Source: Escherichia coli (GTDB taxonomy: Bacteria; Pseudomonadota; Gammaproteobacteria; Enterobacterales; Enterobacteriaceae). From it: DNA of 64,000 nucleotides. The position numbers were made by a program, and so were the translations under genes. The notes under the pieces are model-generated. The model was given only the letters and a program-made list of their open reading frames with translations, ran no database searches and was not told where the DNA came from. The DNA lies in the NCBI RefSeq assembly GCF_013315695.1, contig NZ_CP054353.1; one strand, 5' to 3'. Positions 28,148-28,549 of this stretch are shown here, one piece after another. Each line of letters starts with the position of its first letter. The first letter of the stretch is position 1.

Positions 28148-28549
28148 ATGACATGGAATCCGTTGGCGCTGGCGACGGCGCTGCAAACTGTACCTGAACA
28201 AAATATTGATGTAACAAATAGCTATAACGCATTAATTATTAAAATGAATGATTATGGCGATTTGTAAATCAATATTCTTTTTACTTCCCGCCAAATGATT
28301 ATCGAAACCTTTATTTGTCCGGTGAGTAGTATCAGCAATCCAGATGAATTTAATACCTTCTTATTAAGAAATCAGAAGATGATGCCGTTGTCATCGGTAG
28401 GGATCTCCAGCGTGCAACATGAAGAGTATTACATTGTTTTCGGTGCGTTATCGCTTAAATCTTCTCTTGAAGATATCCTGCTTGAGATAACCTCGCTGGT
28501 AGATAACGCATTGGATCTGGCTGAAATTACAGAAGAATATTCACACTAA
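28148..28549 (+). pseudogene. yjfI: yjfI-like gene (DUF2170) interrupted by an in-frame TAA at codon 40
   Basis: One 134-codon frame from ATG 28148 to the stop at 28547-28549, broken by TAA at 28265-28267; ORF track shows only the distal 84-aa piece (28295..28549). Confidence 0.6.

Follow-up and report, generated by a model that had tools for sequence, protein, structure and literature searches.

An inherited yjfI pseudogene in Escherichia coli, probably imported by homologous recombination beside a four-gene accessory island

The window, that is the whole 64-kb stretch of E. coli DNA which was analysed, carries the yjfIJKLMC operon downstream of an accessory island of four genes (Table 1). 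The first gene of the operon, yjfI, is broken by a stop codon, and the five genes after it are intact. Translation of the frame which opens at ATG 28148 and closes at TAA 28547-28549 confirmed that its only interruption is the in-frame TAA at codon 40, as the original prediction had claimed; the length of 134 codons given there holds if the terminal stop is included, while the sense codons number 133. The list of open reading frames indeed catches the distal 84 codons of the gene, as had been remarked, and the 39-aa frame ahead of the stop is listed as well. The name yjfI, which had been assigned from the letters of the sequence, proved correct by both synteny and annotation. When the stop was masked, YjfI matched the Pfam family DUF2170/YjfI (PF09938) with its residues 2-131 on profile positions 1-136/137 (E=4e-43), scoring 146.9 bits against a gathering cut-off of 27, which places the sequence in this family. 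An alignment with 8q8o, a solved structure of the DUF2170 family, covers residues 3-128 of YjfI (E=5e-16); 8q8o was deposited as 'DUF2170 family protein', and we take it to be the structure of Pseudomonas aeruginosa BacA (PA3732). Because a single domain bridges the stop at codon 40, we are dealing with one gene and one lesion. As expected of the family, a homologue of PspA/IM30, yjfJ, lies immediately downstream and starts 18 nt past the yjfI stop, but the uninterrupted frame over the full domain is broken by the TAA at codon 40, which makes the locus a pseudogene of the YjfI/DUF2170 family and not a functional member of it. YjfI has been described as a chaperone-like protein of CesT/Tir type which pairs with the PspA homologue YjfJ in a conserved dyad (PMC11237479; PMC10948618).

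Table 1. Positions of the features discussed, numbered from the first letter of the window.
Feature	Coordinates	Strand	Remarks
Accessory island absent from K-12	22898..28035		Four genes
IclR regulator (island)	22975-23754	minus	
DHDPS-family protein (island)	24083-24976		
MFS transporter (island)	25027-26328		
UxaA-family dehydratase (island)	26362-27957		
Proposed left crossover interval	22830..22897		Last 68 bp of rlmB; last site distinguishing window and UMNK88 at 22829; K-12 homology ends at 22897
Proposed right crossover interval	28445..28617		yjfI 3' end to yjfJ 5' end; last donor-type marker 28444; first K-12-type marker 28618
Terminator-like hairpin with T-run (intrinsic)	28040..28071	+	Upstream of yjfI promoter region; K-12 homology resumes at 28036
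yjfI pseudogene (DUF2170 / CesT-Tir-like chaperone family)	28148..28549	+	133 codons, one internal stop
TAA at yjfI codon 40	28265..28267	+	Derived T at 28265; ancestral codon CAA (Gln)
39-aa N-terminal remnant of yjfI	28148..28267	+	Sole product expected from the normal start
84-aa distal ORF of yjfI	28295..28549	+	Starts at Met50 (codon 50)
yjfJ (PspA/IM30 homologue), intact, K-12-type	28568..29266	+	Own strong Shine-Dalgarno sequence, dG -8.1
yjfK, yjfL, yjfM, yjfC, all intact	29317..32206	+	K-12-type to ~31750

The yjfI stop is a C-to-T transition at 28265, which turns CAA into TAA (Q40*). Alleles were counted in 5426 complete E. coli genomes using 55-mers in which the variant stood at position 28, which forced each 28-base megablast seed across it. 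By this search CAA40, with an uninterrupted yjfI, was found in 5130 of the genomes, and TAA40 in 247 (~4.6%), 042, NCTC86, UMNK88 and Sanji among them. These counts, the one domain across the stop and the PGAP label 'internal stop', given to the yjfI pseudogene in EcPF7, WCHEC005784, 042, NCTC86 and UMNK88, together upheld the earlier view of a single nonsense substitution in one gene. A sense codon and an intact orthologue in most close relatives, and a stop which is reproducible in independent assemblies, are what define a pseudogene by nonsense mutation, and both were observed here. It had also been considered that orthologues might share the stop and keep two conserved small ORFs; instead, the 247 genomes with the stop are carriers of one derived allele. 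Two independent small genes should be separately conserved around an ancestral stop; since the stop is limited to one derived minority haplotype, two conserved small genes are ruled out. The yjfI stop is thus a routine nonsense pseudogene, a case of ordinary gene decay which genome annotation already records, and in the literature searched no paper was found that describes the allele. In older annotations the pseudogene halves were entered as two 'hypothetical proteins', and both are deposited as separate entries of that name on at least 1000 contigs each (e.g. UMNK88 AEE59596 and AEE59597).

To place the allele we compared nine haplotypes of yjfIJKLMC codon by codon and base by base. The changes specific to the 042-type haplotype were E26Y (GAG>TAT) and Q40* in yjfI, E79* (GAA>TAA) in yjfJ, where the eight further differences from K-12 are all synonymous, M125I, P148L and L201I in yjfK, W127* (TGG>TAG) in yjfM and S124L in yjfC. 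PGAP likewise records internal stops in yjfI and yjfJ of 042, NCTC86, UMNK88 and WCHEC005784, and in yjfM of the first three. Among complete E. coli genomes yjfJ E79* is present in 245 and yjfM W127* in 42. An intact YjfI protein of the same haplotype (Y26/Q40/H91) was found exactly on 83 public contigs; six such loci were examined, all six had CAA40 together with yjfJ TAA79, and all five which reached yjfM had TGG127. Two of the intact-yjfI loci were set against UMNK88 over 9 kb, and just 5 sites differed, among them the very bases that create the yjfI and yjfM stops. The most parsimonious order of the lesions would be yjfJ first, then yjfI and last yjfM, as read from these allele combinations; reversion of TAA to CAA in the genomes with intact yjfI is a formally possible alternative. 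Relaxed selection would fit a decay of yjfI that set in once its partner yjfJ had been lost. The idea that no intact ancestor exists was entertained, as a 'repaired' 621-bp haplotype gave no 100% match among complete genomes, and was rejected; that query carried the K-12-type base at 28618, and the look-up of the exact protein found the ancestor. At codon 26 of yjfI (28223-28225) the change E26Y takes two base changes, and one of the two possible paths between the codons passes through a TAG stop; the Y26 allele is older than Q40*.

The best match to the region is E. coli EcPF7 (NZ_CP054232.1), the closest relative, which is 99.36% identical to the window over 64 kb (blastn) and has the yjfI allele and the junctions in common with it. 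The two differ at about 380 sites and by 3 indels in 1-15.4 kb, which is a different recombination block, and at about 20 sites in 15.4-64 kb. Left of the island, window 7368-22897 is 99.987% identical to K-12, with 2 mismatches in 15.5 kb, while UMNK88 differs from the window by 1-3% over 16.5-22.9 kb. From 22830 to 28617, with the 5.1-kb island included, an ungapped comparison of the window with UMNK88 gave no mismatch, and from 28618 to ~31750 the window is K-12-type again; in EcPF7 the proteins YjfJ, YjfK and YjfL have exactly the K-12 sequence. Since the left flank is K-12-type, the 042-type segment is a patch of 5.6-5.8 kb with K-12-type DNA on both sides. In a search with the 621-bp junction, EcPF7 alone matched at 100% among the matches listed, the other listed carriers having one mismatch, and among these complete-genome matches the combination of dead yjfI with intact yjfJ was found only in EcPF7. 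A 24.9-kb query (window 16000-40900) was covered to at least 80% in one place by only 512 of the 5426 genomes, which suggests that the IclR-DHDPS-MFS-UxaA island stands between rlmB and yjfI in roughly one complete E. coli genome in ten; Q40* would then be present in about half of these.

We propose that Q40* arose once, on the 042/UMNK88-type yjfIJKLMC haplotype, after yjfJ E79*, and that a subset of its carriers later gained yjfM W127*. A K-12-like recipient would then have taken the 5.6-5.8 kb tract from a donor of 042/UMNK88 type by homologous recombination. The dead yjfI of the donor would have come along as a passenger on the right-hand arm of the tract, beside the four-gene island, and would have replaced the intact yjfI of the recipient; the tract would have ended just short of yjfJ, so that the recipient kept its own intact yjfJKLMC. 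By these comparisons Q40* would be older than the source strain, having been brought in through recombination and not arisen there. Taken as a whole, the account of an inherited Q40* pseudogene, which originated on the 042/UMNK88-type haplotype after the yjfJ stop and was imported by recombination with the island, is in our judgement very probably correct. The import of an island by homologous recombination can, on this example, overwrite a working neighbour gene with the dead copy of the donor. Recombination in the reverse direction, in which K-12-type import restored the yjfJ-yjfC segment of a 042-type chromosome whose yjfI and yjfJ were both dead, is expected to leave the identical right-hand junction; however, the 15.5 kb of K-12-type sequence left of the island, from which UMNK88 differs by 1-3% over 16.5-22.9 kb, argues against it, and we regard this direction as very unlikely.

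A split yjfI whose parts still work has also to be weighed. Functional small proteins might come from both ORFs, of 39 and 84 aa, or from the 84-aa ORF alone through a restart at Met50: gene calls and protein entries exist for both, and no more than 27 nt separate the stop from ATG 28295, a spacing at which post-termination restart is known in E. coli. Against this, yjfI is a single continuous ORF in ~95% of E. coli genomes, the interruption falls within the one DUF2170 domain and within the stretch aligned with 8q8o, and the further nonsense lesions of the native-haplotype operon are a signature of decay. Moreover, no Shine-Dalgarno sequence stands ahead of ATG 28295 (duplex dG +1.9 kcal/mol), and the 84-aa ORF is therefore probably not translated efficiently. 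We hold such a split gene to be highly improbable. The stop could also be bypassed by readthrough, suppression or recoding so that full-length YjfI is made, and three nonsense codons with few missense changes on one haplotype could suggest that stops are tolerated. But the codon is UAA with A as the next base, and no programmed recoding system known from E. coli uses UAA; programmed recoding is a matter of conserved UGA or UAG codons with a recoding signal, while the orthologues here have CAA. The stops on the haplotype are besides of two kinds (TAA, TAA, TAG), which one suppressor would not cover, and bypass thus appears extremely improbable. A sequencing or assembly error, with C as the true base at 28265 and yjfI intact, is next to impossible, since the identical T stands in 247 independently sequenced complete genomes and in EcPF7, and both fragments are on record on their many contigs, which makes an artefact untenable.

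With yjfI taken as an imported pseudogene, translation from ATG 28148 would end after 39 of 133 residues, less than one third of a single-domain protein, and we infer that functional YjfI should not be made. As to the genes downstream, no intrinsic terminator was found between the yjfI stop and yjfJ, and no sigma-70 consensus turned up when 27900-28700 was scanned for promoters. The 300 untranslated nt past the yjfI stop have a C/G ratio near 1, and Rho-dependent polarity is therefore not predictable either way. Judged from the reading frames, the source strain most likely lacks YjfI and has kept YjfJKLMC. The yjfJ gene of the window carries a private change, 28982 A>G (M139V), unseen in all other genomes compared. 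Strains like EcPF7 would be natural mutants, null for yjfI and intact for yjfJ, and useful for studies of the CesT-like/PspA-like pair YjfI-YjfJ. The yjfI pseudogene alone is of little weight, being routine and already annotated.

Other parts of the window showed departures from K-12 and UMNK88 of their own. In yjfC, the short patch 31500-32000 departs from K-12 at 14 positions and from UMNK88 at 17, so that a third haplotype lies inside this gene, and its missense changes P291S and I304L are shared by none of the compared genomes. Codon 12 of ulaG (minus strand, start 37640) is an in-frame TAG at 37605-37607, TGG>TAG, that is W12* as compared with K-12 and UMNK88; in the PGAP annotation of EcPF7 the gene is 342 aa long and begins directly after the W12* stop, apparently with a non-canonical ATC start. 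In UMNK88, the 37 kb around yjfI contain seven genes annotated with an 'internal stop', namely amiB, yjfI, yjfJ, yjfM, ulaG (Q289*), ulaD (Q142*) and ulaE (Q241*), the three ula stops all being CAG>TAG. At 39696-42971 the ula operon of the window is present as a divergent allele, with 95-96% identity to K-12. The annotation of EcPF7 gives 438 nt for ulaC (465 in K-12) and 636 nt for ulaF (687 in K-12), and after ulaF a YagU-family gene (~window 42420-42971 by offset) which is absent from K-12 and UMNK88. At ~46224-48373 an IS200/IS605 tnpA and tnpB (InsQ-family RNA-guided endonuclease) sit inside a TetR/AcrR regulator gene, which they split into two pseudogene fragments (EcPF7 annotation, coordinates by offset).

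The accumulation of stops on the native haplotype raises the question of selection. Of the ~8-9 derived non-synonymous changes of the 042-type haplotype 3 are nonsense, against ~5 missense, while nonsense makes up only ~5% of the non-synonymous mutational opportunity in these genes; the nominal excess has P ~0.006-0.03, as a post hoc value from few reference haplotypes, and is at most a weak hint that loss of the operon was selected for. It is conceivable that selection, and not drift, removed the envelope-stress-like yjfIJKLMC operon from an E. coli lineage which is widespread, and that the source strain represents a rare 'uncoupled' state in which the PspA-like YjfJ is expressed without the CesT-like YjfI, but we consider this speculation unlikely. 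If it were true, a strain with YjfJ and without YjfI could help to show which service YjfI renders to YjfJ. Laboratory evolution has recently linked the operon to a putative part in heat tolerance; the lines which had adapted to heat showed strong upregulation of yjfIJKL (PMC12492005).

When compared with E. coli K-12, whose YjfI (b4181) is likewise the product of the first gene of yjfIJKLMC, the gene in the window has the same locus, synteny and length, and differs by seven nucleotides in 402 bp and by Q40*, E26Y and Q91H in the protein; upstream of it stands the 5.1-kb island, whereas K-12 has a direct rlmB-yjfI junction. The yjfI allele of 042, NCTC86, UMNK88 and about 245 other complete genomes has the identical TAA40 on the same haplotype with the same island upstream. 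The native TAA40 genomes, however, also have yjfJ E79*, 42 of them with yjfM W127*, while yjfJKLM of the window are intact and K-12-type, most likely since the imported tract reached no further than yjfI or just beyond it. Further afield, BacA (PA3732) of Pseudomonas aeruginosa has a homologous DUF2170 domain with the CesT/Tir-type chaperone-like fold as in YjfI, and its gene, like yjfI, lies just upstream of a PspA/IM30 homologue (PMC10948618; PMC11237479). Against the NCBIfam model for BacA equivalogs (NF050185) YjfI reached 91 bits, well under the cut-off of 300, and it falls outside that group. BacA is thus a relative of YjfI at the level of the family only, and it is intact, whereas the YjfI described here is truncated.
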